Part shown: one piece after another, positions 250-62,968 of the stretch
Layout of the letters: each line of letters opens with the position of its first letter
Numbering within the stretch: position 1 is the first letter of the stretch
Assembly (NCBI GenBank): GCA_947501605.1
Contig: CANMWZ010000001.1
Coordinates: 1-64,000 of the forward strand
Length of the DNA stretch: 64,000 nt
Direction: 5' to 3'
Source: Planctomycetota bacterium
GTDB taxonomy: Bacteria > Planctomycetota > UBA1135 > UBA2386
Notes under the pieces: model-generated
What the model was told of the DNA's origin: nothing
The model's database searches: none
The model's input: the letters and a program-made list of their open reading frames with translations, nothing else
Position numbers and translations under genes: made by a program

Positions 250-789
250 ATGCGGCGCGTGGGTGCAGTGCTCGCAGTCGCAGACCTTTCGTTGCACCGT
301 GCCGGCGGCGGTGGGTTCTCGGTGCCGAGCCTCTGCCTGCAACCCGGCGAGGCCGCGGTCTTGGTCGGCCCTTCTGGCTGCGGCAAGTCGACGATCCTGC
401 GCGCCTTGTTCTCGCTGCCGCCGTGCGCTGGCCTCACTGCCACGGGCACCGTTCGCTTCGAAGGGCAACACCTCGGCGCGCTCACTGCCGCAGACGTGCG
501 AACGTTGTTGCGTACCCGCGTCGCCTTCCTTCTGCAGGACGCGGCTTCGGCCCTCGACCCGGTGCGCCGGATCAGCGATCAGATGCGGGCGGCCACGCAG
601 CGCGACGCCGCAGCGTGTCGGGACGAGCTCGCGGGACTGGGCGTCGACGGCGCTGATCGAGTGCTCCGGCGGTTCCCGCATCAGATCTCCGGCGGTCAGG
701 CGCAGCGCGTCCTCGTTGCCATTGCGTGCTTGCGTCGACCAGCGCTCGTCGTCGCCGACGAACCGACCGCCAACGAGAAGACCGAGTAG
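250..789 (+). pseudogene. Truncated ABC transporter ATP-binding subunit (oligopeptide/dipeptide OppD/DppD type)
   Basis: Walker A GPSGCGKS, signature FPHQISGGQAQR and Walker B VVADEPT are present. The frame stops at TAG 787-789 six codons after DEPT, so the D-loop (ALD) and H-loop are missing. Confidence 0.7.
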
Positions 790-1040
790 CGGGAGATGTT
801 TCATGACCAAGAGGCGCAGCCGAGAACTCGGAGCAGGGACTGGAGAGCAACTGCCCAAGCTAGCCGATCTACATCACGCATCAGATGGACGCTTTGTGCC
901 GAGCTCCGGGTTGCTGGTGCCGCGGCTTGCACGTCTCGCCCTGGCATTCGACTACGCTTGATGCTTCGTTCGCTAGAGCCGCAGGCACGCTCGCCAGACC
1001 ACCCGACACCGCCACACTTTGCCGACCCTGTTCCAGCCGC

Positions 1041-1556
1041 ATGTCCTCGCTCAAGTACCTGTCCGGTTATCCGCTCGAACTGCTCGACAAGGTGCAACAG
1101 ATGATCGACGGTGGCCGCCTGCATGCGCACTTGGCACAACGCTACCCCGACGGGCATGACCTGCGCACCGACCGCGCGCTCTACGAGTATGTCGTCACTC
1201 TGAAGAGCCAGTGCCTGCGCAACGCCGAGCCACTGGCGAAGGTGCTCTACGACAACAAGCTGCACGTCGTGCAGCACGCGCTCGGAACGCACACCACGGC
1301 CATGCGGCTGCAGGGTCAGAAACTGAAGAGCAAGCGTGAGATCCGGATCGCCAGTCTGTTCAAAGAAGCCCCGGAGCCGTTCTTGCGCATGATTGTCGTG
1401 CACGAACTCGCGCACCTCAAACACCGCGAACACGACAAGAAGTTCTACTCGCTGTGCGAGTCGATGGAGCCGGCCTACCACCAACTCGAGTTCGATGCAC
1501 GACTGTGGCTGTTGGCCAAGACCCTGCCGCCGCCGTCGCCGGACGCTACTCCCTGA
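1041..1556 (+). CDS. ygjP: YgjP-like metal-dependent hydrolase (M48-like/DUF45; UTP pyrophosphatase family)
   Basis: N-terminus LKYLSGYP, KREIRIASLFK segment, zincin motif IVVHELAH and HDKKFY resemble the short proteobacterial YgjP. ATG at 1041. Confidence 0.8.
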   Translation: MSSLKYLSGYPLELLDKVQQMIDGGRLHAHLAQRYPDGHDLRTDRALYEYVVTLKSQCLRNAEPLAKVLYDNKLHVVQHALGTHTTAMRLQGQKLKSKREIRIASLFKEAPEPFLRMIVVHELAHLKHREHDKKFYSLCESMEPAYHQLEFDARLWLLAKTLPPPSPDATP

Positions 1557-2162
1557 TCGTCGCACTCGCGTGCGTGCCCTGGGTAGAAGGCGTCCTACGC
1601 TGGCGCTCCTCGATGCCCGCGAGCAAGCGGGCAGATACCAAGGCCATGCGTGGCCGTAGCCAGGAAGTCGCGAGTGTGCTCGGTTGGTAGTGACGGACGA
1701 GCGCGTGCTCGAGTTGGACCGGCGAGTGGCGTCCGACCTGTCAAGTAAGGCCCTCAGCGCCTCGCCGTTCCCAAGCCGGTGCGGACGATCACCCATGACT
1801 GCCGGCGCCACGATGGCCCACGAACATGTGGTGCGATGGAGAAGCGATCGCGTACTCCGCGGTCCAATGCCGAGCGTCAGAACGGAGGTCCTACGCACGC
1901 AGCGTCACGATGCCGAGGAACCGTGACGTGGCCGATGGCGACCCATTGCGCACCGCCCGCCAGCGCCGACGCGACAGCCACCGCATGTCGGGACGTAGAG
2001 CCGCAGAGCCACTCCTGCTACCGGCGGTCCGCGTGCCCACCACGCAGCCCGCATCGAGAAGCCAGCCCTATTACCGAGGTCAGGCCTCGGTTTCCGGTCC
2101 CGTCCGTGTCGCAGCCGCCACGATGGGCCGCCGCACCAAGGGTCCCTCGCCAAGGCCTTCGC

Positions 2163-2249
2163 CTTCACTTTGCCTTCCCACAGATGAAGCCACCGCCAAC
2201 TAACAGCGTGGATTCCGTGTCTCTTCGCTCCATGTTCATGGCTTCTTCA
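2163..2249 (+). promoter_or_regulatory. Putative PHO-box-like 11-bp-period direct repeats (OmpR/PhoB family site)
   Basis: CTTCA 2163 and CTTCC 2174; CTTCG 2223, GTTCA 2234 and CTTCA 2245. Each set has exact 11-nt spacing and lies upstream of a phosphate-porin-like gene. Confidence 0.4.
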
Positions 2250-2331
2250 TCTGGCGGCGTTGACTCCCTGCTCATCGCAGGCTGCCTCGCCTCGCGCGGG
2301 TCGCCACACTCCTCTCGCATGGAATCAACCA

Positions 2332-3684
2332 GTGTCCTGGAACTGCTCTTCACTCCTTCTCGCCGCCGCCGCGTCGGTCGCCGCCGCGCTCCCCGCCCAA
2401 GCGCCGCCGGCACCCTCGGTGTCGCCGTCAACGCCGGCGACTCAGGATCCCAAGCCAGCGCCGACGACCATCGAAGACCGCCTCCAAGCGCTCGAGGACC
2501 ACGTCAAGGCCGCCGATGCCGAATTGGCTGAGCTGCGCAAGAAGGGCGTGAAGGCCGAGAGTCCAGCCAAGTGGTACGACAAGCTGAGCATCCGCGGCTA
2601 CGGTCAGATCCGCTACACCAGCCTCCTCGGTGAGGACAACACACCCAACCTCAACGTCCCCGCCGACCGCAGCGTCAACGAACCCGAGACCCTCGTCCTG
2701 CGCCGCGGCCGCGTGATCCTCAGCGGCGATGTCAGCGAGCGCGTGTTCGTCTATGCGCAGATGGACTTCGCCGCCTCGACGGGCTCCGGCGACCAGGCGC
2801 TGCAGATGCGCGACTTCTACGCCGACCTTGCCCTCGACGACGACAAGGAGTCGCGCGTTCGCGTCGGTAACTCCAAGGTCCCGTTCGGCTGGGTCAACTT
2901 GCAGTCGAGCCAGAACCGACTCGGCATCGAACGTCCCGACGCCATCAACTCCGTCGCCGAGGGCGAACGCGACATGGGTGCCTACTACATGTGGGCGCCA
3001 AAGCACGTGCGCGACCTGTTCCGCGACCTCGTGCGCTCCGGCCGCAAGGGCTCCGGCGATTACGGCGTGTTCACCGTCGGCGCCTTCACGGGCCAAGGCC
3101 CCAACCGCGCGGACCAGAACGGCGAAGTCCACGCGGTCGCGCGCGTGTCCTACCCCTTCGAGCTCGAGAACAAGCAAGTCGTAGAACTCGGCGTGCAGGG
3201 CTACACCGGCGACTATGTCGTCACCACGGCCGCGATCGGGGCCACGACGCCGACCGTGGACACCGAAGGCGTCACCGACGAACGCATCGCCGCGACCTTC
3301 GTGCTCTACCCGCAACCCTTCGGGCTCGAAGCCGAGTGGAACTGGGGCACGAGCCCGCAGCTCAGCGATAACCTCCTCACCATCGACGATGAATACGTCC
3401 AGGGCGGCTATGTCCAGGCGAGCTACATGATGAAGGGCGACAGCGGGACGTGGACTCCGTTCACGCGGTGGAACTTCTTCGACGGCGCGCGCAAGTTCGC
3501 GCGCAACGCACCGAAGGACGAGGTCAACGAACTCGACATCGGCATCGAGTGGCAAGCGACGCCCGACATCGAGCTGACCATGATGTACACGCACGCCTTC
3601 TGGCGCACCGACACCAGCACCGCGCCGTTCGACCGCGCGACCGACGACGACCGCATCGGCCTTCAGGTGCAGTTCAACTTCTGA
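2332..3684 (+). CDS. Outer-membrane porin, phosphate-selective OprO/OprP-like
   Basis: Signal peptide after GTG 2332, N-terminal coiled coil, IRGYGQIRY, LRRGRVILSG, GNSKVPFG motifs and C-terminal LQVQFNF beta-signal. Confidence 0.8.
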   Translation: MSWNCSSLLLAAAASVAAALPAQAPPAPSVSPSTPATQDPKPAPTTIEDRLQALEDHVKAADAELAELRKKGVKAESPAKWYDKLSIRGYGQIRYTSLLGEDNTPNLNVPADRSVNEPETLVLRRGRVILSGDVSERVFVYAQMDFAASTGSGDQALQMRDFYADLALDDDKESRVRVGNSKVPFGWVNLQSSQNRLGIERPDAINSVAEGERDMGAYYMWAPKHVRDLFRDLVRSGRKGSGDYGVFTVGAFTGQGPNRADQNGEVHAVARVSYPFELENKQVVELGVQGYTGDYVVTTAAIGATTPTVDTEGVTDERIAATFVLYPQPFGLEAEWNWGTSPQLSDNLLTIDDEYVQGGYVQASYMMKGDSGTWTPFTRWNFFDGARKFARNAPKDEVNELDIGIEWQATPDIELTMMYTHAFWRTDTSTAPFDRATDDDRIGLQVQFNF

Positions 3685-3693
3685 CGCTCGCGG

Positions 3694-5295
3694 TCAGCGG
3701 AGGTACAGCCGCGCCTCGCCGCGCTGCGCCACTAGGCGCCAAGGCGGCGCCTGCAGCGACGTCAGTCGATCGCTGCATTGTGCTGTCTGGTGCTCGAACT
3801 GCATGGTCACCAAGACAGCATTGGCACCGCAAGCGTCGGCACACGCAGCAAAGGTCGGCAGCCCACTCGCGACCTGAGGGCAAAGGACCACGTCGGTTCG
3901 AGGCACCATGCGCATCAGCAGGTCCCAGAACGCCGACAACAAGCGCACTTCGCCCGGCGGCAGGTGTTCCTTCAACAGCGCGAGGCCGTCGCGGTACTGC
4001 ATCGGCAGCGCCGGACCGCGGAACGGCCCTGGGACCGCCACGAGCAGCGCCACGACGACGGCGATGGTCGATGGCGCGATGGCGGGCCGCTGCCAAAAGA
4101 CCGGTGCGAGCGAGGCCAGTCCGCGGCAGAGGATCCACGCAAGCAGCGGAATTGTAGCGAGCCCGAGTTCGGGTCTCGCCGCCACGAACAGCGGCACACC
4201 CAGCACGAGCACGCTGGTCGCCAGGTACCACGGCAGCAGACTGCGAACATCGGTCGGCGGCAGGCCAGCGACGCGTCGCCTTTGCCAAAGGCCGCCGATC
4301 GCCAACAGAGTCGCGAGGGCCAACACACGACTCGACCACGGTCGCGGCAAGAACGTCGTGCTCCACGTGTACTCCAGGGCAAACGGCAGCACCGTCAGGT
4401 TCCGCGACACCATGGCGAGGACTGGTTCTGGATTGGATTGCAGCGCGTCGAGCACCGATCGGGCCCCAGGAAAGTCGCGCTCGATCCAACGGTCCGGCAC
4501 ATCGAAGGCCGCCTGGAGCTCAAACGGAACGAACCTCGCCCGCTCCGGATCGACCTTGCCCTCAAGCCGGACCCACTCCTCGGCGAGTTCTTGCAAACAC
4601 GCCTGCTGACCGTAGCTCTGCCGGAACGCCAACCACGCCCGATCCCGGTGGTCCGGACTTGCGGCCACCATCGCGGCGACCGCGACTGCGAGCGCAAGCA
4701 TCCCCAGCGACGAGCGCCGCCGCGCGCGCATCGACGGCAGCAGGACTGCACACATGGCAAACGCGAGCAGCCACGGCAGATTCTCAGCCCGCCCCAGCGA
4801 TACGAGACAGAGCATCCCAATGGCGAGCCACACCCGACCGCGAGCCATCGCACCGAAGCTCAGGAACACGAAGATCGCGTTGAAGGCGTAGACTCCAGGA
4901 CCGGGCACCGGCCCTTCTGCAGAGGCCTGGAGGATGATGGGCGAGGCCGCATACCACGTCGCCGCGACCACGGCGAGAGGCGAGGGTGCGACAGCCCGCA
5001 GAGCCCACCAGAGTGCGAGGCTACCGAAGCCTGCCGACAGCATCAGCATCGTATCAGGCAGGTGCCCGTCGATCGGAAACAGGGCAAGGCAGCCGTAGGC
5101 AAACGAGTAGAGCGGCCCCCATGCCAGACTGGGCATCGTGCCATGGGCGAACAGATCGACCCCAGCCAAGTAATAGACAATCTCGTCGGCCGCGTGCAGG
5201 TCGACGTGTTCCGTGAAGCCGACGAAACGGGTCCACACGACGAGGACGATGACCGCGAACTCAGCCGCAGCAACGCAGCGTGCTCGGCGCATCAT
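3694..5295 (-). CDS. Polytopic membrane protein, probable GT-C fold glycosyltransferase
   Basis: Acidic ADE motif after the first TM helix, WGPLY loop and many hydrophobic helices. ATGA overlap with the stop of the upstream GGDEF gene. Confidence 0.6.
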   Translation of the reverse strand: MMRRARCVAAAEFAVIVLVVWTRFVGFTEHVDLHAADEIVYYLAGVDLFAHGTMPSLAWGPLYSFAYGCLALFPIDGHLPDTMLMLSAGFGSLALWWALRAVAPSPLAVVAATWYAASPIILQASAEGPVPGPGVYAFNAIFVFLSFGAMARGRVWLAIGMLCLVSLGRAENLPWLLAFAMCAVLLPSMRARRRSSLGMLALAVAVAAMVAASPDHRDRAWLAFRQSYGQQACLQELAEEWVRLEGKVDPERARFVPFELQAAFDVPDRWIERDFPGARSVLDALQSNPEPVLAMVSRNLTVLPFALEYTWSTTFLPRPWSSRVLALATLLAIGGLWQRRRVAGLPPTDVRSLLPWYLATSVLVLGVPLFVAARPELGLATIPLLAWILCRGLASLAPVFWQRPAIAPSTIAVVVALLVAVPGPFRGPALPMQYRDGLALLKEHLPPGEVRLLSAFWDLLMRMVPRTDVVLCPQVASGLPTFAACADACGANAVLVTMQFEHQTAQCSDRLTSLQAPPWRLVAQRGEARLYLR

Positions 5296-6215
5296 GCGCG
5301 CACGCAGTTGCGCCCCGCAGCCTTGGCGCGATAGAGCGCTTCGTCGGCGCGACGAGTCAGACTCTCGAGAGTGCGACCAGCGGCTGGGGCACAGGCGAAA
5401 CCGATCGAGATCGTCGGGTTGACGAGCAGGCTGTTGTACTCGACTGCTTCGTCGGCCACGGCGGCGCGCATGCGTTCGCCAAGAGCGCCAGCGCCGTCGG
5501 CATCGCAATCCACAACGCAGGCCGAGAACTCGTCCCCGCCGAAACGGCTGACGACGCCACCCACTGGGGCGAGCAGCGCCCCGAGTCGCGCGCCGATGAC
5601 GCCGATGGAACGGCCGCCGACAAGGTGGCCATGGGTGTCGTTGAGCTTCTTCAGACCGTCGAGGTCCATCATGAACACCGCGAGCGGCCGGCCCCCGGCG
5701 ATGCAGCCGCGGATCATCTCTTGGACGCGCTGCTGGTAGACGCGCTGCACCGGGAGCCCGGTCAGATCGTCGATGTTCATCAGCTGGTCCACCGTCTGAT
5801 GGAACTCTGCTTCGACCTCGTCATGGAAGGTGAACTTCAGCACGGTTTCCCCGAGCACGATGCGCGCGCCATCCCGCAAAGCCGCGCGCTCGATCCGGGC
5901 ACCTTCGAGAAACGTGCCGTTGGTCGACTGTAGGTCGAGGATGTCCCAACCGTCACCCGCCGCCGAGCGCTCGATACGACAGTGGACGGCCGACACCTGC
6001 TGGTCCGACACGATGAGCAACTGCGCACGTTCCGGATGTCGGCCCACGACAAGGGCATCTTCGTTCAGCAGATAGCGACGACCGACCTCGACCCCGCGTA
6101 GCACCACCAGCACCGGCATGCGAGGGACGCGTGCCGACGTCAAATCGCGCGTGCGGAACACGGTTGTGCGCTGCAGCAGCGGGTCATCGTCGGGCAATGG
6201 CATGGACGGTGCCAT
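5292..6215 (-). CDS. FHA-domain diguanylate cyclase (FHA-GGDEF)
   Basis: FHA motifs VVGR, VSAVH, DLQSTNGTF; GGDEF-domain motifs DDLTGL, DLDGLKKLNDTHGH, RFGGDEF, ADEALYRAKAAGRN. Confidence 0.92.
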   Translation of the reverse strand: MAPSMPLPDDDPLLQRTTVFRTRDLTSARVPRMPVLVVLRGVEVGRRYLLNEDALVVGRHPERAQLLIVSDQQVSAVHCRIERSAAGDGWDILDLQSTNGTFLEGARIERAALRDGARIVLGETVLKFTFHDEVEAEFHQTVDQLMNIDDLTGLPVQRVYQQRVQEMIRGCIAGGRPLAVFMMDLDGLKKLNDTHGHLVGGRSIGVIGARLGALLAPVGGVVSRFGGDEFSACVVDCDADGAGALGERMRAAVADEAVEYNSLLVNPTISIGFACAPAAGRTLESLTRRADEALYRAKAAGRNCVRA

Positions 6216-6304
6216 GCTCGCGCAGTCCGACGCTCGGCGTCAAGCTGCACGGTCGCGCAACAGTTCTGTTTCGGTCGCCCCCAGGCAATCTACGATACCT
6301 GCAC

Positions 6305-7207
6305 GTGAGCGCCCCCTACTGCACCCTGGTCTACCTCTGCCTCGGTGCGGCACTTTCAGCCCAGGGTGCGGTGCTCGACGTACTCGACGGCGAGACGCTC
6401 TACGATGGCGGCTTTCTGTTCACCGTGGGCCAAGAAATCCAGCGGCGCGAGACGCTGCGCTCGGGTTCGCGGCGCGTCGACGACCCGCGCGCGATGCACG
6501 AACAAGAGCAGTCGACGACGATGGCGCTGCAGTATGGCCTGCGTCACGACCTGCAGATCGGCATTGCCGCGCAGTGGGTCGCCAATGACCAGATCCGCAA
6601 CGACGGCGAACTCCATGCCGAAGGTGTCGGCGACGTCGAGCTGCTGGCGAAGTACCGTTTCTTGCGCCTCGACGGCCGCGGCTTCGCCACCAACTTCGCG
6701 CTGCTCTCGGGCGTGTCGCTGCCAACCGGTGATGACGACTCGATCAGCAGCGGAACGGAGCTGACGCCCGATATCCAGGTTGGTAGCGGCAGCGTTGACC
6801 CCATGCTCGGCGCGGCCGTCACGCACGAACCAGGACGCTGGCGCTTCAACGCCGCGACGTTCTACCACCTGCGCACGGACGCCGACCGCGACGGCGACCG
6901 CCCCGGCAATGAACTGACGGTCGAACTCGCAGCTGGCAACCGTTTCTGGCTCGAACCCTACCCCGGCCCGTTCATGCGCCTCGACGTCGTCGGGCGCTAC
7001 TACCACTCCGAACGCGACCAGCAGGACGGTTCGGCACAGCAAAGCACCGGCGGCGAGCGATTCACCTTGGGCCTGAACTACGCCTTCCGCCCCCGACCTG
7101 CTCTTGACTTCCAGCTCTACGTCGAAGTCCCGATCGCCCAGCGCGTGAACGACACGCAGCTCGGCGTCGACTGGCAAGCGGACTTCACGATCGGCCATCG
7201 CTTCTGA
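6305..7207 (+). CDS. Outer-membrane beta-barrel 'transporter' (MetA-pathway-of-phenol-degradation/SphA-like)
   Basis: Signal peptide ending ALSAQ after GTG 6305; family-typical GVGDVELLAKYRF, SLPTG and GSGSVD segments; amphipathic strands; C-terminal F. Confidence 0.7.
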   Translation: MSAPYCTLVYLCLGAALSAQGAVLDVLDGETLYDGGFLFTVGQEIQRRETLRSGSRRVDDPRAMHEQEQSTTMALQYGLRHDLQIGIAAQWVANDQIRNDGELHAEGVGDVELLAKYRFLRLDGRGFATNFALLSGVSLPTGDDDSISSGTELTPDIQVGSGSVDPMLGAAVTHEPGRWRFNAATFYHLRTDADRDGDRPGNELTVELAAGNRFWLEPYPGPFMRLDVVGRYYHSERDQQDGSAQQSTGGERFTLGLNYAFRPRPALDFQLYVEVPIAQRVNDTQLGVDWQADFTIGHRF

Positions 7208-7227
7208 ACCGACCGACAACCACGATC

Positions 7228-7743
7228 ATGCGCCTTCATCCCGTTCTGCTCCCATTGCTGTTGACCGCCTGTGCTACGCCAGGCGTTCAACTCGTGCCGC
7301 TCGACCGAGACTTCGCGTTCCTCGAGATCGACCTCCGCGGTTGAACTTGAAACGAGGAGCTGCTGGGCCTCCAGCGGCTCTTCGAGGACCGGTTCGGTCC
7401 TACCCCTCAGATCGACCTCGACCAGCAAATCGCACGCGCCCGCGTACCCGAGCCACTGGAGCTCGACTTTCGTGACCTGAGAGACGGCGTCATGCGCAAC
7501 AACGTTGGCGTCGACCGCATCGTCGTGGCGCTGCGCGCGGACTGCGACGACGGTTTCGCGACCGCGATGCAGACGAAGCAACGGTGGGCCCTCGACGGCG
7601 CGGTCGATGCCGCAGCGCCTGGGGCATGGCACTGGTTCGCGGTCGAAGGGCTCGAGCTCGACTCGGAGATCCGGTTGTCGTGGATCGGAGCATCTACTGG
7701 CCCAGGCGATCGCCCCGCAGCGCTCCCACTGCAGCGCCGCTAA
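7228..7743 (+). CDS. Candidate di-selenocysteine (G-U-T-U) lipoprotein with HMA-like fold pattern; in-frame TGA at 7342-7344 and 7348-7350
   Basis: Reads MRLHPVLLPLLLTAC...FLEIDLRG*T*NEELLGLQRLFEDRFG and continues in frame into the track ORF 7492-7743. Lipobox LTAC. 171 codons. SECIS-like hairpin directly downstream of the TGAs. Confidence 0.75.
7354..7383 (+). promoter_or_regulatory. Bacterial SECIS-like hairpin
   Basis: 13-bp stem GAGGAGCTGCTGG/CCAGCGGCTCTTC (2 G-U pairs) with loop GCCT. The loop G is 16 nt after the second TGA and 22 nt after the first. Confidence 0.7.
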
Positions 7744-7814
7744 CGCTAGCATTCGAACTCCCCCCGCCTCCCCCCCAGGGCGCGCTGCTCCCACAGACGC
7801 CTCGAAGAGGACAG

Positions 7815-9488
7815 ATGCTCGCTGCACGATTTCGGTCTCGCTCCACGTCCCTAGCAGCGGTCGCGAGCTTCGCCTTGCTGCTGGCGAACTGCGCCGCCCA
7901 GACCGGTGGCTCCAACTACGACCAGGCACTCGCGCGCTACAAGGAGCTGGTCGCCCGCAAGCCGTTCCGACACCACTTCGAAGGCCGCGACATGCTGGCC
8001 AGAACCGGCACGCCCGAAGCCCTGGCGATCCTCGTCGAAGACTTCAACAAGCCGCAGAACTTCCGCGATCAAGCTCGGTACCACATCGCCTCGCTGTTCG
8101 GCAGCAACTTCGATGACGACGCCTCGGCGTCGGTGTTGCAGAAGCTCCGAATCGCCAATCCCAAACCCGCGGACATCTGGTTGTGGGTCAACTCGCTCCG
8201 CGTCGAGACGGCTCGCATCGGTAGCAGCGAGACGCTGCAGATCCTCACCGACGACAAGTCGATCTACCACAAGGCCGCCGCGCTGGTCGCCCTGTCGGCC
8301 CGCGGCAAAGACGAGCTGTGGGACGGGATCTACCACATCTGCATCAACTTCCCGGCAAAGGAAGCCGACCGCTACCTCGTGCTCGGCGCGATGTCCGGTG
8401 CGGTTCTCAAGAACAAGGCGAAGGTGCGCAGCGAGCGGGCGCGCGCCGGCATGACCGCCTACATCAGCCTGCTTGCGGATGCCGTGAAGCTCGAGCACAC
8501 GGCAAAGATCCAGATGGCGCGCCACCTGCAACTGGCACTGAATGGTCCTGGCCTGCTCATCCAGCCCGAGCCGTGGCTGCTCTTGCTGCAGCAGGATGCC
8601 CCGAAGAAGCCGAGCGGCGGCGGCAACACCGTGACGCAACCGCGGTTCTTCGGCATCGAGACCGAAGGCGAGCGCTTCTGCTACGTGGTCGACATGTCCG
8701 ATTCGATGCTGCAGGAGATCTCACCCAGCGTGAAGCCCAAGGGCCCGGTCACCGGACCCAAGAAGAAGCAGAAGGGTGAGCTGCTCGAGGAAGGCGACCT
8801 GCCGTGGCACCAGATCAAGACCCGCTTCGACCTCGCACGGGAACACCTCAAGCTGTCGCTGATGCGACTGCCGGATGACAAGTACTTCAGCATCGTCTGG
8901 TTCGGCGACAAATCTGGCACGCTGCCGTCGTGCCCCGGACTGATCAAGGCGACCAAGTCGAACGTCACCAAGGTCTGCAAAGACCTCGACGCCGTCGAGA
9001 TCGGTGAGAAGAGCCTGCCGGCGAAGCCGTTCGGCGTGCTGCGCGGCGATACCAACTTGCAGTCTGGCCTCCGCCGCGCGTTCGCGCTGTCGGGCAAAGG
9101 CTTCGTCGAGACCGACGCGTTCATCGATCCAGGTCCTCTGACGGAAGGCTGCGACACGATCTTTCTGCTGTCCGACGGCGCGCCCTCGACGGACGACTTC
9201 GTCACCCTGGACAAGGACTACGGCGAGGACCAGGTCGTGCTGGACCGCGAGTCCGGCGCCGCAGCTGCGCGCACGCCGGAACTTTGGTACAGCGGCCCCT
9301 ATGTGGATCCGCAAAACCTGGTGCCGGAGGTCGAGCGCATGAACACCTTCCGCCGCGTGCGCATCCACGGGATCGGCATCGGCGAGGCCGACGAGAACCT
9401 GCTGCGGCGCCTGGCCGACATTGGCAACGGTCAGGTCTACATGGTCGGCAAGGAACAAAAGCAGGAGCCGGCGCGCGTGCCCAAGTGA
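7815..9488 (+). CDS. Secreted helical-repeat (HEAT-like) plus von Willebrand factor A domain protein
   Basis: Signal peptide; FFGI...YVVDMSDSM (DxSxS MIDAS), GDTN, IFLLSDGAP and IHGIGIG motifs; AGAGGA RBS upstream of ATG 7815. Confidence 0.8.
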   Translation: MLAARFRSRSTSLAAVASFALLLANCAAQTGGSNYDQALARYKELVARKPFRHHFEGRDMLARTGTPEALAILVEDFNKPQNFRDQARYHIASLFGSNFDDDASASVLQKLRIANPKPADIWLWVNSLRVETARIGSSETLQILTDDKSIYHKAAALVALSARGKDELWDGIYHICINFPAKEADRYLVLGAMSGAVLKNKAKVRSERARAGMTAYISLLADAVKLEHTAKIQMARHLQLALNGPGLLIQPEPWLLLLQQDAPKKPSGGGNTVTQPRFFGIETEGERFCYVVDMSDSMLQEISPSVKPKGPVTGPKKKQKGELLEEGDLPWHQIKTRFDLAREHLKLSLMRLPDDKYFSIVWFGDKSGTLPSCPGLIKATKSNVTKVCKDLDAVEIGEKSLPAKPFGVLRGDTNLQSGLRRAFALSGKGFVETDAFIDPGPLTEGCDTIFLLSDGAPSTDDFVTLDKDYGEDQVVLDRESGAAAARTPELWYSGPYVDPQNLVPEVERMNTFRRVRIHGIGIGEADENLLRRLADIGNGQVYMVGKEQKQEPARVPK

Positions 9489-13499: not shown

Positions 13500-14249
13500 A
13501 TGCATCGAACCAGCTGCCACCGTCCCTTGTCGAAGCTCGCCCGTCTCTGCTGCCTCTCGCTGCTCGCCGTGGCGAGCAGTTGCAGTGGCAACGAGCCGAA
13601 TGCGCAACGCCCCACTACCACCGCGCCTACGACCCCGAGCACCGGCTTGCAGCCCACAGGCCAAACCGCTTCTTCAACAACTCCGCCTACGCCTGCCATG
13701 ACCACTCCGAAGACCACGACCACAGGCCTCGAGACCGCGACCCTCGGAGCCGGCTGTTTCTGGTGCATCGAAGCAGTGCTCGAACGCATCGATGGCGTGC
13801 TCGAAGTCGACAGCGGTTACATGGGCGGCAGCGTCGACGAGCCGACCTACAAGGCGGTGTGCGATGGGGACACCGGCCATGCCGAAGTCGTGCGCGTCAC
13901 CTTTGACCCAAACAAGCTCAGCTACCGCCAACTGCTCGACTGGTTCTTCCAGGCTCATGACCCGACAAGCCTGAACCGCCAGGGCAACGACTACGGCACC
14001 CAATACCGCTCGGCGATTTTCTACTACGACGAAGCCCAGAAGCTCGTGGCGGAAGCAGCGAAGGCGGCTGCGAACGAGCACTACGGCAATCGCGTGGTGA
14101 CCGAGATCACGATGGCCGCCAAGTTCTGGATGGCCGAGGACTACCACCAGGACTTCTTCGCCAACAACCCAAGGCAGCCCTACTGCAACGCGCTGATCCC
14201 ACCCAAGCTGAAGAAGCTCGGTCTCGACGGCAAAGGCACGACCAAGTAG
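13500..14249 (+). CDS. msrA: Peptide-methionine (S)-S-oxide reductase with lipoprotein signal and Thr/Pro linker
   Basis: GAGCFWC, SGYMGG, TGHAEVV, HDPTSLNRQGND, QYRSAIF, AEDYHQ, YC. Confidence 0.95.
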   Translation: MHRTSCHRPLSKLARLCCLSLLAVASSCSGNEPNAQRPTTTAPTTPSTGLQPTGQTASSTTPPTPAMTTPKTTTTGLETATLGAGCFWCIEAVLERIDGVLEVDSGYMGGSVDEPTYKAVCDGDTGHAEVVRVTFDPNKLSYRQLLDWFFQAHDPTSLNRQGNDYGTQYRSAIFYYDEAQKLVAEAAKAAANEHYGNRVVTEITMAAKFWMAEDYHQDFFANNPRQPYCNALIPPKLKKLGLDGKGTTK

Positions 14250-28384: not shown

Positions 28385-28556
28385 CATTCACGGCGAGGTT
28401 GGTCGCCAACCCCAGTAGGGCGCCAACTCCAACAAGGGCAGCCCGAGCCCTACAGCCCAGCCACGACCGCCAACCAGAAATGGTCTGGCCCGCAGCGCAC
28501 AGACCGAGCCCTGGCATTGGGCGAGCCGCCATGGAGTGGTAGCGTCGGCGGTCGCC

Positions 28557-31088
28557 ATGCGCATGCTCCCCACCTGGCCACCAGTTCGCGCGGCGCTCCT
28601 GGCCCTTTTGCTGGTCACCTCGGCAAGAGGTCAGATGGACGCGACCTTCGATCAGCGTCTCCAGCACTGGGCATGGCAACCGCTGCGCGATCCAGCGACG
28701 CCGCAGATCGAGAACCACAGTTGGATCCGCGATCCGATCGACGCCTTTGTGCTTGCGGGGCTGGAAGCGAGCGGGCTTTTGCCCGCTCCCGAGGCGCCAC
28801 CCGAGGTCTGGCTACGCCGCGTGCACTTCGACTTGACTGGCCTGCCGCCGGGCGCGCACGACGTGGCGCAGTTTGCCGCGGAGGCTTCGCCAGCGGCGCG
28901 CGAGCGCATCGTCGATGCACTGCTGGCCTCGCCGCACTTCGGCGAACGCTGGGCGCGGCATTGGCTCGACCTCGTGCGTTACGCCGAGTCGCTGGGGCAT
29001 GAGTTCGACTTCCGCATCCCGAACGCTTGGCGCTATCGCGACTACGTGATCCGCGCGCTCAATGACGACGTGCCCTTCGACCAGTTCGGCAAGGAGCACC
29101 TCGCTGGCGACCTGCTGCCGGCGCCGCGAATCGACGCCGCGTCGCAACGCAACGAATCCGTGCTCGGCACCGGGTTCTTCTGGTTCTGTGAGCAGACGCA
29201 CTCGCCGGTCGATGCCATGCAGCACCAAGCCGATCGCATCGACAACCAGATCGACGTGCTGACCAAGTCCTTCCTCGGCCTGACCGTGGCGTGCGCGCGC
29301 TGCCACGACCACAAGTTCGACGCCATCGGCAACCAGGACTACTACGCCCTCTACGGGTTCTTGAAGAGTTCTCGCTACGTGCAGCAGCCGGTTCATCACA
29401 CCGATCCGGCGGCGTTTCGACGCGCACTCGAGGCCCGACGAGCTCTGGTCGGCTCCGGAGAGGCTCGCGGCGACGCGTTGGACCACAGCCTCGCGGGCTA
29501 CACCGCGGTCGGTGACTCGACGCGAGTGGAAGCGCTGCGCGGCGCCTTCATCGAGGACGTGAACGACCACGATGTGCGGCTGCGAGAACTGCCCGGGTCG
29601 TGGCTGTGCACCGCCGACGTCGCCCGCGAGCGCGACTGCGTCTTGCTGTCACCGACGTTCGTACCAACTGCCAGGTACCTCCATCTGGAGGTCGCGGGTG
29701 AGGGCTCCCGCCTCCAACTGGTGGTCGATGGCTTCCACCTCGTTCGCGACCCGATCTACGGCCGACTACGAGCGGGCATCGACAACCCCGAGCCGCACTG
29801 GATCACCATCGAGTTGGGCCAGTTCCGCGGTCGCTCCGCGCACCTCCAATTCCTCGACCAACGCGCCCACGACCTTGCCGACCCTGCCCATGATCGCGCG
29901 GCCTATGCGGACGCCGCTTGGTGCGCGGTCCGCCGCGTCGTGCAGAGTGATGAGTCGCGACCGCCAACGAGCATCGGCCCCGCCACGCTGCGGACGCTCG
30001 CTCGCAGCGAACGCGCGGTCGCCGATGCGCTGCGGATCTGGCAACGTGCGAGCGCTGCCTTGCCGCAGAGCGCCACGGCTCCTGGCATGGCAGACGGCAC
30101 CGGCGAGGACGAGCACATCTTCTTGCGCGGCAGTCACAAGACGCCCGGCGCGCTGGCCAAGCGGCGCTTCCTGCGCGCGATTGCCGGCGATGGTCCGATG
30201 CCCTTGCCCGCTGGGAGCGGTCGCCTAGAACTCGCCGAACGCATGTTCGGCGTCGACAACCCGCTGCCATCGCGCGTGCTGGTGAACCGCGTGTGGCACC
30301 ACCTGTTCGGTCGCGGGCTCGCACGCACCGTCGACAATCTCGGTCACCTGGGTGACACGCCGCAACACCAAGATCTGCTCGATCACTTGGCGCAGTCCAT
30401 GATCCGCGGTGGCTGGTCGCAAAAGCAACTGATCCGCCGCCTCGTGCTGTCCAGCACCTACGCGATGGACAGTCGCTGCGACCAAGCGAACGAGGACCGC
30501 GATCCAGACAATGTGCTCTGGCATCGTCAGAATCTCCGACGCGTCGAGGGCGAAGTCGTGCGCGACGCCATGCTGGCGATCGCGGATCGGCTCGACCATC
30601 GCCTCTACGGCCCGCCGGTTCTGGTGCGCCTCCCTGCGGCGGAACGCGCGCGCGGTCGCCCCGAGGTCTCGGGGCCGGTCGACGGCGACGGCCGCCGCAG
30701 CATCTACCTCGCCGTGCATCGCAACTTCCTGCCCGACCTGCTGGTCGCATTCGATCTGCCGCGACCATTCAGCACGATGGGTGCGCGTAGCAACGCCAAC
30801 GTGCCAGCACAGGCCTTGACGCTGCAGAACGACCCGCTGGTGCACAGCATGGCGCGCCTCGCCGCCGATCACCTGCTGCAAGATGGCATGGCGAGCGAGG
30901 ACGACGGCATCCAGCGCTGGTTCGTCCTGCGGTTTGCGCGCCGTGCGGACGGCAACGAAGTCGCAGCGTGCCAAGCGTTCCTCGAGCAAGCGCGCACGCA
31001 GCTCGGCGTCGACGCGAACGACCCGCGCCCGTGGGCTGACCTCGCGCACGTGCTGTGGAACAAGAAGGAGTTCCTCTACCTACGATGA
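28557..31088 (+). CDS. Planctomycete DUF1549/DUF1553 (PSCyt2/PSD1) domain protein
   Basis: HWAWQP, PIDAFV, FGERWARHWLDLVRYAES, AWRYRDYVI, CARCHDHKFD, VNRVWHHLFGRG, RRSIY, QALTLQN. Confidence 0.93.
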   Translation: MRMLPTWPPVRAALLALLLVTSARGQMDATFDQRLQHWAWQPLRDPATPQIENHSWIRDPIDAFVLAGLEASGLLPAPEAPPEVWLRRVHFDLTGLPPGAHDVAQFAAEASPAARERIVDALLASPHFGERWARHWLDLVRYAESLGHEFDFRIPNAWRYRDYVIRALNDDVPFDQFGKEHLAGDLLPAPRIDAASQRNESVLGTGFFWFCEQTHSPVDAMQHQADRIDNQIDVLTKSFLGLTVACARCHDHKFDAIGNQDYYALYGFLKSSRYVQQPVHHTDPAAFRRALEARRALVGSGEARGDALDHSLAGYTAVGDSTRVEALRGAFIEDVNDHDVRLRELPGSWLCTADVARERDCVLLSPTFVPTARYLHLEVAGEGSRLQLVVDGFHLVRDPIYGRLRAGIDNPEPHWITIELGQFRGRSAHLQFLDQRAHDLADPAHDRAAYADAAWCAVRRVVQSDESRPPTSIGPATLRTLARSERAVADALRIWQRASAALPQSATAPGMADGTGEDEHIFLRGSHKTPGALAKRRFLRAIAGDGPMPLPAGSGRLELAERMFGVDNPLPSRVLVNRVWHHLFGRGLARTVDNLGHLGDTPQHQDLLDHLAQSMIRGGWSQKQLIRRLVLSSTYAMDSRCDQANEDRDPDNVLWHRQNLRRVEGEVVRDAMLAIADRLDHRLYGPPVLVRLPAAERARGRPEVSGPVDGDGRRSIYLAVHRNFLPDLLVAFDLPRPFSTMGARSNANVPAQALTLQNDPLVHSMARLAADHLLQDGMASEDDGIQRWFVLRFARRADGNEVAACQAFLEQARTQLGVDANDPRPWADLAHVLWNKKEFLYLR

Positions 31089-32488
31089 CCCCCCACGCCT
31101 GTTCACGCCGCGAGTTCCTGCGCCGCTCGGCGAACGGTTTCGCCATGCTGCCGGTGTTCGACGCGTTCGCGCGCAAACGGCCATTGCCTCGTTCGGTACG
31201 CGGCGGCGGCGCCTGCCGACCGCATCACGCACCACGAGCCAAGGCAGTGATCTTCCTCTACATGGACGGCGGGCCAAGCCACGTCGACACCTTCGACTAC
31301 AAGCCGCAGTTGCAGAAGGACGACGGCAAACCGTGGACGCGACCGAGGGCGCCAACACAGTTCCAGGACGACGGCAACACCCTCGGCTCGCCGTGGCGAT
31401 TCCACCGCTACGGCGAGTCAGGGCTGTGGGTCAGCGAGTTGCTGCCCCATCTCGCCCAGTCCGCCGATCGCCTCTGCGTCGTGAAGTCGATGGTCGCCGA
31501 CTTCAGCGAGCACACCAACGCCAACTACTACTTGCACACCGGTCTTGGCCTGCAGGGCCGGCCCAGCGCCGGCGCATGGGCCAGCTATGGGCTTGGTTGC
31601 GACAGCGAGAACCTGCCCGCGTTCGTCGTGCTCAACGGCGGCCTGATCCCGCCTGGCGGCATCGACTGCTTTGGCAACGGCTTCTTGCCCGCGCATTCCC
31701 AGGGCTCGCTGTTTCGCATGCGTGGTGAGCCGCTCGCGAACGTCACGCCGCGCGAGGAACGCGGACGTCAGCAGCACAAGCTCGACCTCTTGTCCGCCCT
31801 CGACGCCATGACGCTGCGCGACAGCGGCGGCGCCGATGCGATCGCGGCGGCGATCCACAACCAAGAACTGGCGTTCCGCATGCAGAGCGCCGTGCCGGAG
31901 CTGTTCGACCTGTCGAGCGAGCCTCTAGCGGTGCGGCAGCGCTACGGCGTGGACGCGCCCTACGAGCCAACGCGCATCTACGCGCAACAGTGCCTCCTCG
32001 CGCGGCGACTGGTGGAGCGCGGCGTGCGCTTCGTCGAAGTCCTCTGCCCCGATACCGGCCACGATCGCTGGGATCAGCACAGCAATCTGAGAAACGGCCT
32101 GGCCGACAACTGCCGCATGGTGGACCAACCGATCGCAGCCCTGCTCGAAGACCTCGCCGCGCGCGGTCTGCTCGACGAGACGCTGGTCGTCTACTGCGGC
32201 GAGTTCGGCCGCACGCCGTTCGCCCAGGGCCACAATGGCCGCGACCACAACCCATTTGGCTTCACGACCTGGATGGCTGGTGGCGGCACACGAGCGGGTG
32301 CGAGCTACGGCGCCACGGACGACTACGGCTACGCGGCGGTCGAGAACCCATTCACGGTGCACGACCTGCATGCCACCATGCTCCACTTGCTCGGCATCGA
32401 CCACGAGCGCTTCACCTTCCGCTTCGGTGGCCGCGACATCCGGCTGACGGACGTCTACGGCAACGTGCCGCACGCGCTGCTGGCGTAA
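31085..32488 (+). CDS. DUF1501 family protein (sulfatase-like fold) with Tat signal
   Basis: SRREFL, FLYMDGGPSHVDTFDYKP, ARRLVERGVRFV, WDQH, GEFGRTP, GRDHNP, RLTDVYG; ATGA overlap with the upstream gene. Confidence 0.93.
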   Translation: MTPHACSRREFLRRSANGFAMLPVFDAFARKRPLPRSVRGGGACRPHHAPRAKAVIFLYMDGGPSHVDTFDYKPQLQKDDGKPWTRPRAPTQFQDDGNTLGSPWRFHRYGESGLWVSELLPHLAQSADRLCVVKSMVADFSEHTNANYYLHTGLGLQGRPSAGAWASYGLGCDSENLPAFVVLNGGLIPPGGIDCFGNGFLPAHSQGSLFRMRGEPLANVTPREERGRQQHKLDLLSALDAMTLRDSGGADAIAAAIHNQELAFRMQSAVPELFDLSSEPLAVRQRYGVDAPYEPTRIYAQQCLLARRLVERGVRFVEVLCPDTGHDRWDQHSNLRNGLADNCRMVDQPIAALLEDLAARGLLDETLVVYCGEFGRTPFAQGHNGRDHNPFGFTTWMAGGGTRAGASYGATDDYGYAAVENPFTVHDLHATMLHLLGIDHERFTFRFGGRDIRLTDVYGNVPHALLA

Positions 32489-62587: not shown

Positions 62588-62968
62588 GTGGAAACCCCGC
62601 CTCGCGCGGCTCGATCGCACCGGGCCGACGGTTCCGCTAGGCTCGATCCCCGCATGCGCGCCGGCAACGCCGCCATGGACCGGGATCGCCAACGCACTTG
62701 TCGTGCTCGCCGGCGAACTCGACGACAAGCAGCGCCGGTCCAAAGAGCCACTGGCCGACCTGCGCGACTTGCTCCCAGCGCTGTGCCTCGACCTCTCGAC
62801 GACCAAGGCCGGCAAGGCCACTCTCGAAGTCCACAGCGACCTCATCGACGTTGCCTGCAGGTGCTCGGGCAGCAGGCGCAGAGCGACTCGTTTGGGGGGC
62901 CGGTCGAGACCAGCTTCGCCGTGCTGTTCTTGAAGAATGCCGCACTCCCGGCGATCACCGGCAGGTGA
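62588..62968 (+). pseudogene. Fragmented remnant of a helical-barrel (prenyltransferase/squalene-cyclase-repeat-like) planctomycete gene
   Basis: Protein-like segments alternate between frames. Ends QQAQSDSFGGPVETSFAVLFLKNAALPAITGR*, a recognisable C-terminal pattern without the gene body. Confidence 0.35.

Follow-up and report, generated by a model that had tools for sequence, protein, structure and literature searches.

We analysed a stretch of 64,000 nucleotides (nt) from a Planctomycetota bacterium (GenBank assembly GCA_947501605.1, contig CANMWZ010000001.1, positions 1 to 64,000 of the forward strand; this whole stretch is called the window below). In it, a gene for an outer-membrane beta-barrel is followed by a gene for a small lipoprotein whose reading frame is broken by two TGA codons and by nothing else. 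Translated with TGA read as selenocysteine (Sec, U), residues 38-44 of the lipoprotein are G-U-T-U-N-E-E. A sequence-only reading of the window had described the two genes as an envelope module, on the same strand, separated by 20 nt and both exported. Translation of the genes and inspection of their signals show that this description is correct throughout: both lie on the + strand at the positions given, with the 20-nt gap, and both carry export-type signals. A scan of one genome per species then gave nine further loci (L001-L009) that encode a relative of the lipoprotein, eight of them labelled as Planctomycetota or Singulisphaera metagenome-assembled genomes (MAGs) and one labelled 'bacterium'. 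Counts out of ten refer to the window plus these nine loci. The features of the pair are as follows.

6305..7207, + strand: outer-membrane beta-barrel gene, COG4313 / Phenol_MetA_deg family (300 codons; GTG start at 6305, TGA stop at 7205-7207)
6305..6367, + strand: barrel signal peptide, residues 1-21, ending ...ALSAQG ahead of A (by inspection of the translation and nine orthologues)
6368..6412, + strand: conserved mature N-terminus of the barrel, AVLDVLDGETLYDGG (LDVLDGETLY invariant in 10/10; mean column conservation 0.89)
6722..6730, + strand: P-T-G motif of the barrel, residues 140-142 (invariant in 10/10)
6950..6970, + strand: barrel turn L-E-P-Y-P-G-P, residues 216-222, putatively periplasmic (conservation 1.00, 10/10)
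7208..7227, no strand: intergenic gap of exactly 20 nt between the barrel and lipoprotein genes
7228..7743, + strand: lipoprotein gene (ATG at 7228, TAA stop at 7741-7743; 171 residues with the two TGA codons read as U)
7228..7272, + strand: lipoprotein signal peptide, starting MRLHPVLLPLLLTAC, with lipobox L-T-A-C (Cys15; by inspection)
7315..7533, + strand: HMA-like beta-alpha-beta-beta-alpha-beta domain of the lipoprotein, residues 30-102 (AlphaFold2 model), with U-T-U in the beta1-alpha1 loop
7342..7344, + strand: first in-frame TGA (predicted Sec39), kept in 10/10 sequences
7348..7350, + strand: second in-frame TGA (predicted Sec41), kept in 10/10 sequences
7353..7384, + strand: hairpin resembling a selenocysteine insertion sequence (SECIS), 14 bp in the window, loop GCCU, starting 2 nt past the second TGA
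7385..7401, + strand: second, shorter hairpin of 6 bp directly after the first (RNAalifold columns 50-66; 3/6 pairs change on both sides)
7537..7695, + strand: C-terminal all-beta domain of the lipoprotein, residues 104-156 (strands of the AlphaFold2 model), with a conserved T-G-Q (T116 and Q118 invariant in the 10 Sec forms)

Full-length orthologues of the lipoprotein (37-67% identity) were found at all nine loci. At each of them the gene immediately before it, on the same strand and 2-117 nt away, encodes a barrel orthologue (44-68% identity, tblastn), and the identity ranks of the two proteins across the loci are roughly parallel, as expected for joint inheritance. Since the barrel gene is upstream at 9/9 loci while the other neighbours vary, the pair is a conserved unit. 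Judged from these sequences, the two genes form what is predicted to be a self-contained two-gene envelope operon, widespread in Planctomycetota. Conserved linkage was one of the points on which the earlier description of a module was said to stand or fall, and it is borne out. A promoter and terminator scan of positions 5900-8100 gave no promoter-like site; the one terminator-like site lies on the opposite strand inside the barrel gene and is within chance expectation.

The sequence TGA-ACN-TGA is found in frame and at the same place in the window and in 9/9 loci, with ACT, ACA, ACC or ACG as the Thr codon. Pairwise differences at the three codon positions amount to 0.26/0.05/0.49 upstream of the TGAs and 0.20/0.20/0.36 downstream, in one frame (10 sequences). 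As third-position variation is highest on both flanks and in the same frame, both flanks appear to be under coding selection. TGA is also the stop codon of the barrel gene in the window and in 7/9 loci, that is, an ordinary stop in these genomes, so that a global reassignment of TGA (genetic code 4 or 25) is ruled out.

A profile of the ten proteins was searched against 1.84 billion cluster representatives and returned 115 proteins at E <= 0.001. Thirty-three of these are N-terminal fragments of 29-63 residues, of which 32 stop (...L-x-G) at the residue that precedes the first TGA and one stops two positions short of that. C-terminal fragments number 73, and 20 of them start no more than 8 positions past the second TGA. 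The remaining nine span the TGA site: one W-T-W form (a JGI protein in which the gene caller took TGA as Trp), four D-C-T-S-N forms, one G-C-S-C form (P0066) and three without Cys. A further search gave three more C-T-S forms, seven in total. Calls of bacterial selenoproteins usually require Cys homologues opposite the TGA (PMC1088965, PMC1976440). Such homologues were found opposite Sec39 in eight relatives (seven C-T-S and one C-S-C) and, thinly, opposite Sec41, where one relative has Cys and seven have Ser; three relatives have neither Cys at the U-T-U site.

The division of the family into fragments could also be read literally, with the TGAs as true stops that follow a 38-residue lipopeptide and precede a separate downstream protein, or that mark a decayed gene. 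Gene callers do split the family in this way (33 N-terminal and 73 C-terminal fragments among the 115 relatives), and one NCBI record annotates just a 101-amino-acid C-terminal piece (P0005). Nor was the Sec machinery seen: tRNA-Sec was not found in the 64-kb window or in the nine loci (pieces of at most 16.5 kb), and no SelA, SelB or SelD domain was found among the 41 open reading frames (ORFs) of the window that were scanned. The full selA/selB/selC/selD set is present in some Planctomycetes (PMC4807772). True stops would have to be reconciled with two TGAs at identical positions in 10/10 diverged orthologues (37-67% identity), with synonymous change between them and with coding evolution in one frame on both sides. 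They would also leave the downstream protein without a conserved start codon, the C-terminal database fragments starting at scattered profile positions (43-89), and they fit poorly with Cys opposite TGA in eight relatives, with a conserved hairpin at SECIS distance and with a predicted structure in which the upstream strand is needed to complete the sheet. We consider true stops highly improbable. From the sequence comparisons, both TGAs are very probably selenocysteine codons and the lipoprotein a U-x-U selenoprotein, as had been proposed from the window alone: conservation extends to both the TGA pair and the hairpin, fragments in the database stop at the first TGA, Cys-containing relatives exist, and one predicted domain extends across the TGAs.

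The region downstream of the TGAs is highly structured. Positions 7330-7420 (91 nt) have a minimum free energy of -46.5 kcal/mol (z -4.47). In the ten-sequence alignment the consensus stem of the first hairpin is 13 bp long, with compensatory exchange at two pairs (GC-to-UA in 2 sequences, GC-to-CG in 3 sequences), and the apical loop is G-N-C-U, its first base G being invariant. Small apical loops containing G are a feature of bacterial SECIS elements, for which a stable stem-loop of this kind directly downstream of the UGA is the mark (PMC1088965); this is the arrangement found here. The second hairpin may extend the SECIS or stand as an element of its own. When both hairpins are taken together, 95.3% of the alignment cells pair, against 39-54% with the partners slid by 1-3 columns, and five pairs change on both sides. 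The observed covariation score was reached by 0/500 shuffles, a comparison to be read with the provisos that sequences related by descent may outscore shuffles even where nothing folds and that this stretch is also coding. An Rfam scan of positions 7000-8000 at E <= 10 gave three small-RNA matches at chance level and no SECIS family.

Lipoprotein signal peptides end at an invariant Cys, which forms part of the lipobox consensus. Cys15 of the lipoprotein is invariant in the 10/10 Sec forms and in all 16 rows of an alignment that includes database relatives, and the lipobox pattern is present in all 33 N-terminal database fragments (by inspection). An AlphaFold2 model built from the 10-row alignment, with U shown as C, has a mean predicted local distance difference test score (pLDDT) of 87.6 and a predicted TM-score (pTM) of 0.82, with a tether of 14 residues before the domain. 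In this model the strand of residues 30-37, which is encoded before the TGAs, belongs to the same sheet as the rest (pLDDT ~90), and U-T-U is located between this strand and the helix of residues 42-56. The top Foldseek matches in the PDB are almost all HMA domains (CopZ, Atx1, CCS, ATP7A/B, PacS, MerP), with TM-scores (TMt) of 0.66-0.80 and root-mean-square deviations (rmsd) of 2.0-2.6 Å over 66-69 columns; CopZ 6ff2 gives a TMt of 0.80 and an rmsd of 2.0 Å. HMA domains hold their metal site, of consensus C-x-x-C, in the beta1-alpha1 loop, where the lipoprotein has U-T-U. A weak, sub-threshold lead in the same direction came from the ESM Atlas with the Cys-form relative P0010 (cluster score 0.80, HMA in 55% of the members).

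The term 'HMA-like' used in the sequence-only reading therefore holds for the predicted fold and for the position of the site, and fails for sequence: no HMA sequence or profile match was obtained, and the spacing of the motif differs. The lipoprotein has no Pfam family match, and no NCBIfam family was matched at E <= 10 by any of the ten members, the catalogued selenoprotein models NF041115, NF045648 and NF041114 being among those searched. The seven C-T-S relatives add a feature of the site itself. All 7/7 have an Asp before the Cys and a His six residues after it, at positions where the Sec forms have Gly and Leu/Met; judging by these sequences, the gain of Asp and His in the C-T-S forms looks like an exchanged ligand set.

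The barrel protein begins with MSAPYCTLVYLCLGAALSAQG, followed by AVLDVLDGETLY, which reads as a signal peptide by inspection, and the signal segments of the nine orthologues all end ...A-Q-G/x ahead of LDVLDGETLY. It matches Pfam family PF13557 (Phenol_MetA_deg) with an E value of 8.8e-16 and 59.1 bits, for a cut-off of 22. A PDB sequence search with the barrel profile gave no match. The AlphaFold2 model (pLDDT 78.4) has about 12 long strands (DSSP, approximate count) and the mature protein about 279 residues. COG4313 proteins are 12-stranded barrels of 270-320 mature residues, implicated in the uptake of hydrophobic molecules (PMC4493636), and the window barrel agrees with them in its profile match above the gathering score, its ~12 strands and its mature length of ~279 residues. 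The barrel subfamily comprises 260 proteins at E <= 1e-20. Most of the 120 homologues listed carry PF13557, and every taxon-labelled one among those listed is from Planctomycetota/Planctomycetes, usually under the name 'transporter'. In the 10-row alignment, LDVLDGETLY, EPGRWRFN, GNRFWLEPYPGPFMR and PTG are the invariant motifs of the subfamily.

Conservation along the barrel is uneven. With strand order taken from the model, it is high in the N-terminal segment (0.89), in turn T3 (0.90) and in turn T4 (1.00), and falls to 0.44-0.46 in the putative outer loops L4 and L5. Following the usual rule of barrel topology, the segments that are conserved best, namely the N-terminal decapeptide together with the EPGRW and LEPYPGP turns, would face the periplasm; this side is inferred from that rule and from an approximate strand count. 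The N-terminal segment is invariant in sequence but modelled at pLDDT < 50 (residues 1-27). In COG4313 proteins, Pput2725 among them, about 14 N-terminal residues occlude the barrel lumen (PMC4493636), and the mature N-terminus of the window barrel is possibly a lumen plug or a docking segment.

Foldseek matched the barrel model to the FapF transporter (5o67, E 7.2e-12) and to the Pput2725 channel (4rl8, E 1.3e-11, TMt 0.76, rmsd 4.0 Å). The barrel might then be a dedicated, FapF-like translocator that moves the lipoprotein to the cell surface, where the Sec pair would meet its ligand outside the cell, an idea that can be combined with either of the chemistries considered below. FapF, a polypeptide transporter, has the best Foldseek E value, Pput2725 itself resembles the translocator domains of autotransporters (PMC4493636), and the order of barrel, then cargo, is strict (10/10). 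The PTG motif, invariant in the window barrel, is common to FapF and Pput2725, the latter being the closest structure to FapF, and is proposed to form a lateral gate (PMC5557850). Pfam nevertheless places the barrel in PF13557 (COG4313), 4rl8 is the best match by TM-score, and the sole NCBIfam match, to the FilC model, has an E value of 0.0082 and 15.5 bits against a cut-off of 630. With its conserved segments probably turned to the periplasm and its variation greatest in the putative outer loops, the barrel suits a periplasmic partner better, and its family's lumen, 10-12 Å wide without the plug (PMC4493636), would not readily accommodate a lipoprotein of two folded domains. On balance, translocation of the lipoprotein by the barrel is improbable.

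For the function of the pair we propose, as a possibility that falls short of probable, the capture of a soft metal or of some other thiophilic ligand where the barrel faces the periplasm. Both UGAs, six bases apart, would be decoded as Sec through one SECIS starting 2 bases past the second UGA. Sec-Thr-Sec would thereby be placed in the beta1-alpha1 loop, where copper and mercury chaperones hold CxxC. The mature lipoprotein, which we take to be periplasm-facing, would sit on its short tether beside the conserved, presumably periplasmic, face of the barrel, and its two selenolates, aided by the invariant Glu43 and Glu44, could seize a soft thiophilic species crossing the outer membrane through or along the barrel. 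Candidate ligands are Cu(I), Hg(II), Ag(I) and Cd(II), either as ions or in neutral or organic complexes. Given the association of COG4313 channels with hydrophobic cargo, such complexes are no less plausible than the free ions. There are precedents for the chemistry: two-Sec metal-binding selenoproteins (UxxU, NF041115) are catalogued (PMC13188914), and UXU motifs of SELENOP have been described as binding Cd (PMC11818150). A bolder version, which we hold to be doubtful, is a lipid-tethered bis-selenolate clamp that docks on the COG4313 channel and strips soft metals or organometallics, such as mercury compounds, at the outer membrane. Its selenolates would have an affinity beyond the reach of thiols, and it would be a phylum-wide device, the first in the bacterial outer envelope to depend on selenium for metal trafficking; both of these points are as doubtful as the clamp.

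Several observations weigh against metal capture by a Sec pair. The Sec genes missing from the window and the locus pieces, described above, are one of them. The likeness to HMA domains is weak: Foldseek E values for the HMA matches are 0.017-0.37, none being <= 0.001. In Pfam, none of 16 members of the family gave an HMA (PF00403) match (limits of E <= 1 for the window protein and E <= 10 for three further Sec forms and seven relatives), and a PDB sequence search with the lipoprotein profile returned nothing meaningful (best E 0.11). The loop is that of the HMA site, and its motif is U-x-U in place of C-x-x-C. Natural relatives exist with a single Cys (the seven C-T-S forms) or with none (three). 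Redox families typically have a single nucleophile paired with Ser, and two adjacent selenols in the oxidising envelope tend toward a diselenide. The known substrates of COG4313 proteins are hydrophobic organic molecules (trichlorophenol, sphingosine), with no tie to metal ions in the available passages of PMC4493636. Gene neighbourhoods count on the same side. Neighbourhood analysis, which the sequence-only reading had suggested as a way to look for metal-resistance genes beside the pair, turned up no copper, mercury or cadmium genes, and more broadly no metal-resistance, metal-uptake or selenium-metabolism gene near the pair, among the 41 window ORFs and 32 of 59 flanking ORFs. These 32 candidates, scanned with Pfam, comprise three ORFs from L001 and L002 and, from L003-L009, the ORFs closest to the pair. 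What comes nearest to such a metal gene is an MgtE gene in L005 and an ArsR/MarR-type helix-turn-helix gene ~3.3 kb away in L004.

Several of these points suit a redox enzyme, in which Sec39 would be the nucleophile and Sec41 its resolving partner, with a diselenide across U-T-U. In the envelope it could work as a peroxidase, as an oxidase or isomerase of thiols, or as a reductase acting on an electrophilic hydrophobic compound that the barrel lets in. In the seven C-T-S variants position one is kept and position two is Ser, as in monothiol redox families, and the lack of metal genes near the pair causes a redox enzyme no difficulty. Most prokaryotic selenoproteins are redox proteins, with UxxC, UxxS, CxxU and TxxU motifs dominating the lists (PMC1976440, PMC13188914), a UxU motif arose in a rhodanese-type sulfurtransferase (PMC1976440), and the barrel family handles hydrophobic organics (PMC4493636). 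The fold is the first obstacle: it is predicted not to be thioredoxin-like, and its best structural matches are HMA metal-binding domains. The Asp and His gained beside the Cys in 7/7 C-T-S variants would be needless for a simple redox site, and no reductase or electron-donor gene is linked to the pair among the flanking ORFs scanned. A redox role, whether in general or in one of the versions named, is in our estimate unlikely; it is a serious rival all the same, about as hard to exclude as a metal role.

The Sec pair might instead carry a chalcogen, as a Se-X-Se bridge in which X is Se or S, and take part in scavenging selenium or in handling hydrophobic species of sulfur or selenium that come in via the barrel. 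UXU-type motifs are found in SELENOP, which is known to carry selenium (PMC11818150), hydrophobic and uncharged molecules are the preferred substrates of the barrel family (PMC4493636), and the rhodanese-type protein with a UxU form is a sulfurtransferase (PMC1976440). Among the window and flanking ORFs scanned, the pair has no linked gene for SelD, a cysteine desulfurase, a rhodanese or sulfur oxidation, the fold is HMA-like, and nothing observed speaks for this idea in particular. We regard it as distinctly improbable, less so only than true stops at the TGAs.

The closest parallel in structure is with the HMA (PF00403) chaperones CopZ, Atx1 and MerP and the N-terminal domains of CopA/ATP7, which the lipoprotein resembles in topology and in having a chalcogen pair in the beta1-alpha1 loop and at the start of helix 1. 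MerP is moreover an exported envelope protein, a further likeness. Unlike the HMA proteins, the lipoprotein has U-x-U instead of C-x-x-C and Sec instead of Cys, lacks sequence or hidden Markov model similarity to them, and carries a lipid anchor and an additional C-terminal beta domain. It is encoded beside an outer-membrane barrel, whereas HMA proteins are encoded beside a P-type ATPase or in a mer operon. The 'metal-binding protein' NF041115 (UxxU) and MbdU (NF045648) are also bacterial proteins with two close Sec residues, which are presumed metal ligands, and presumably with one SECIS (PMC13188914). The lipoprotein differs from both in lacking an NCBIfam match, in its UxU spacing, its lipid anchor, its linkage to a barrel and its occurrence in Planctomycetota.

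Among exported selenoproteins, the lipoproteins SaoX and SaoC of the SAO system are likewise lipid-anchored and truncated at TGA in databases, and their Sec and Cys residues have been proposed to contact a heavy-metal or organometallic substrate; their folds are different (an ABC substrate-binding protein and a CC-COOH protein) and the available passages give them no barrel partner (Haft and Gwadz, bioRxiv 10.1101/2022.07.06.499078). UxU also occurs in the rhodanese-type sulfurtransferase of an Olavius symbiont, but this protein is cytoplasmic and of unrelated fold (PMC1976440), and in the Sec-rich tail of SELENOP, but this is a eukaryotic plasma protein of unrelated fold with SECIS elements in the 3' untranslated region (PMC11818150). 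The barrel, for its part, shares PF13557, ~12 strands, PTG and a conserved segment before strand 1 with the COG4313 channels (Pput2725, TcpY, SphA) and FapF. Characterised members of this group handle trichlorophenol, sphingosine and amyloid subunits (PMC4493636, PMC5557850). No lipoprotein or selenoprotein partner is reported for them in the available passages of these two papers, and the window barrel belongs to a subfamily with invariant motifs of its own.

The sequence-only reading had added that the system appears undescribed, and this assessment stands. The lipoprotein has no Pfam or NCBIfam family, and the passages searched of the 2026 review of prokaryotic selenoproteins (PMC13188914) contain no such U-x-U family and no mention of UxU, lipoproteins or planctomycetes. 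The BSepDB paper does not mention UxU, lipoproteins, planctomycetes or metal-binding. Full-text searches of the literature, which covered main texts, gave no description of the lipoprotein family or of a barrel-selenoprotein pair. The lipoprotein very probably represents a new selenoprotein family, which combines motif and fold in a new way and has a new fixed partner; two-Sec UxxU proteins, Sec lipoproteins and a UxU rhodanese are already in print.

The genes around the pair are less constant. Those next to it in the window are the following.

7815-9488, + strand: next gene, encoding a VWA-like lipoprotein (557 residues, lipoprotein-like N-terminus, weak VWA_2 match with E 0.017)
5292-6215, - strand: divergent gene for an FHA + GGDEF diguanylate cyclase, ~90 nt before the barrel start (also at 2/9 loci, L001 and L002)

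The VWA-like lipoprotein was considered as a part of the module and rejected: it is present at only 2/9 loci (L001 and L002, 72-73% identity). A RumA-like methyltransferase is a neighbour at 3/9 loci. Other flanking genes encode, by Pfam, PSD1/DUF1501, beta-lactamase-fold, MgtE, TPR, aldehyde dehydrogenase, LysR, MlaD, aminotransferase and carboxypeptidase proteins. PSCyt2/PSD1 and DUF1501 genes are found in the window at 28536-32488 (+), and the G+C content of the window is 64-70%. Overall the window has the appearance of planctomycete chromosomal DNA. In L003 a PSCyt2/PSD1 + DUF1501 pair, a hallmark of planctomycetes, occupies positions 601-5348, directly upstream of the barrel gene. A gene for a phosphate-selective porin O/P (PF07396) precedes the pair by ~2.6 kb in the window (2260-3684, +) and by about as much in L002 (4420-5958). 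In the database, P0008, a C-terminal piece from the lipoprotein family, and P0212, a homologue of the barrel, each come from a 69,906-bp ENA contig, probably the same one, and make a candidate linked pair.

Two further observations in the window concern selenoproteins in general. A methionine sulfoxide reductase A gene is present at 13500-14249 (+; PMSR E 5.8e-64) as one ORF without TGA; some bacteria make MsrA as a selenoprotein (PMC13188914). Further genes with read-through TGAs were screened for across the window, by a design blind to paired TGAs, and one candidate came out at 62931 (+), an in-frame TGA with an open frame on either side and a hairpin of -19.8 kcal/mol downstream. This candidate was rejected, an ordinary gene starting with MNRRLRKF being found after the TGA.

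If our reading of the lipoprotein is correct, a family of at least 115 clusters (50% identity) has been split into two fragments in public data, or missed. A double-Sec, exported and lipid-anchored protein would join the short list of selenoproteins working outside the cytoplasm, and the use of Sec would be extended to planctomycete lineages known from MAGs only. COG4313 barrels, whose substrates are mostly unknown, would gain a fixed protein partner, which would make barrel function testable. The natural Sec/Cys/Ser series (U-T-U, C-S-C, C-T-S) within one fold would, finally, allow the choice of selenium over sulfur to be asked about at a probable metal or redox site.

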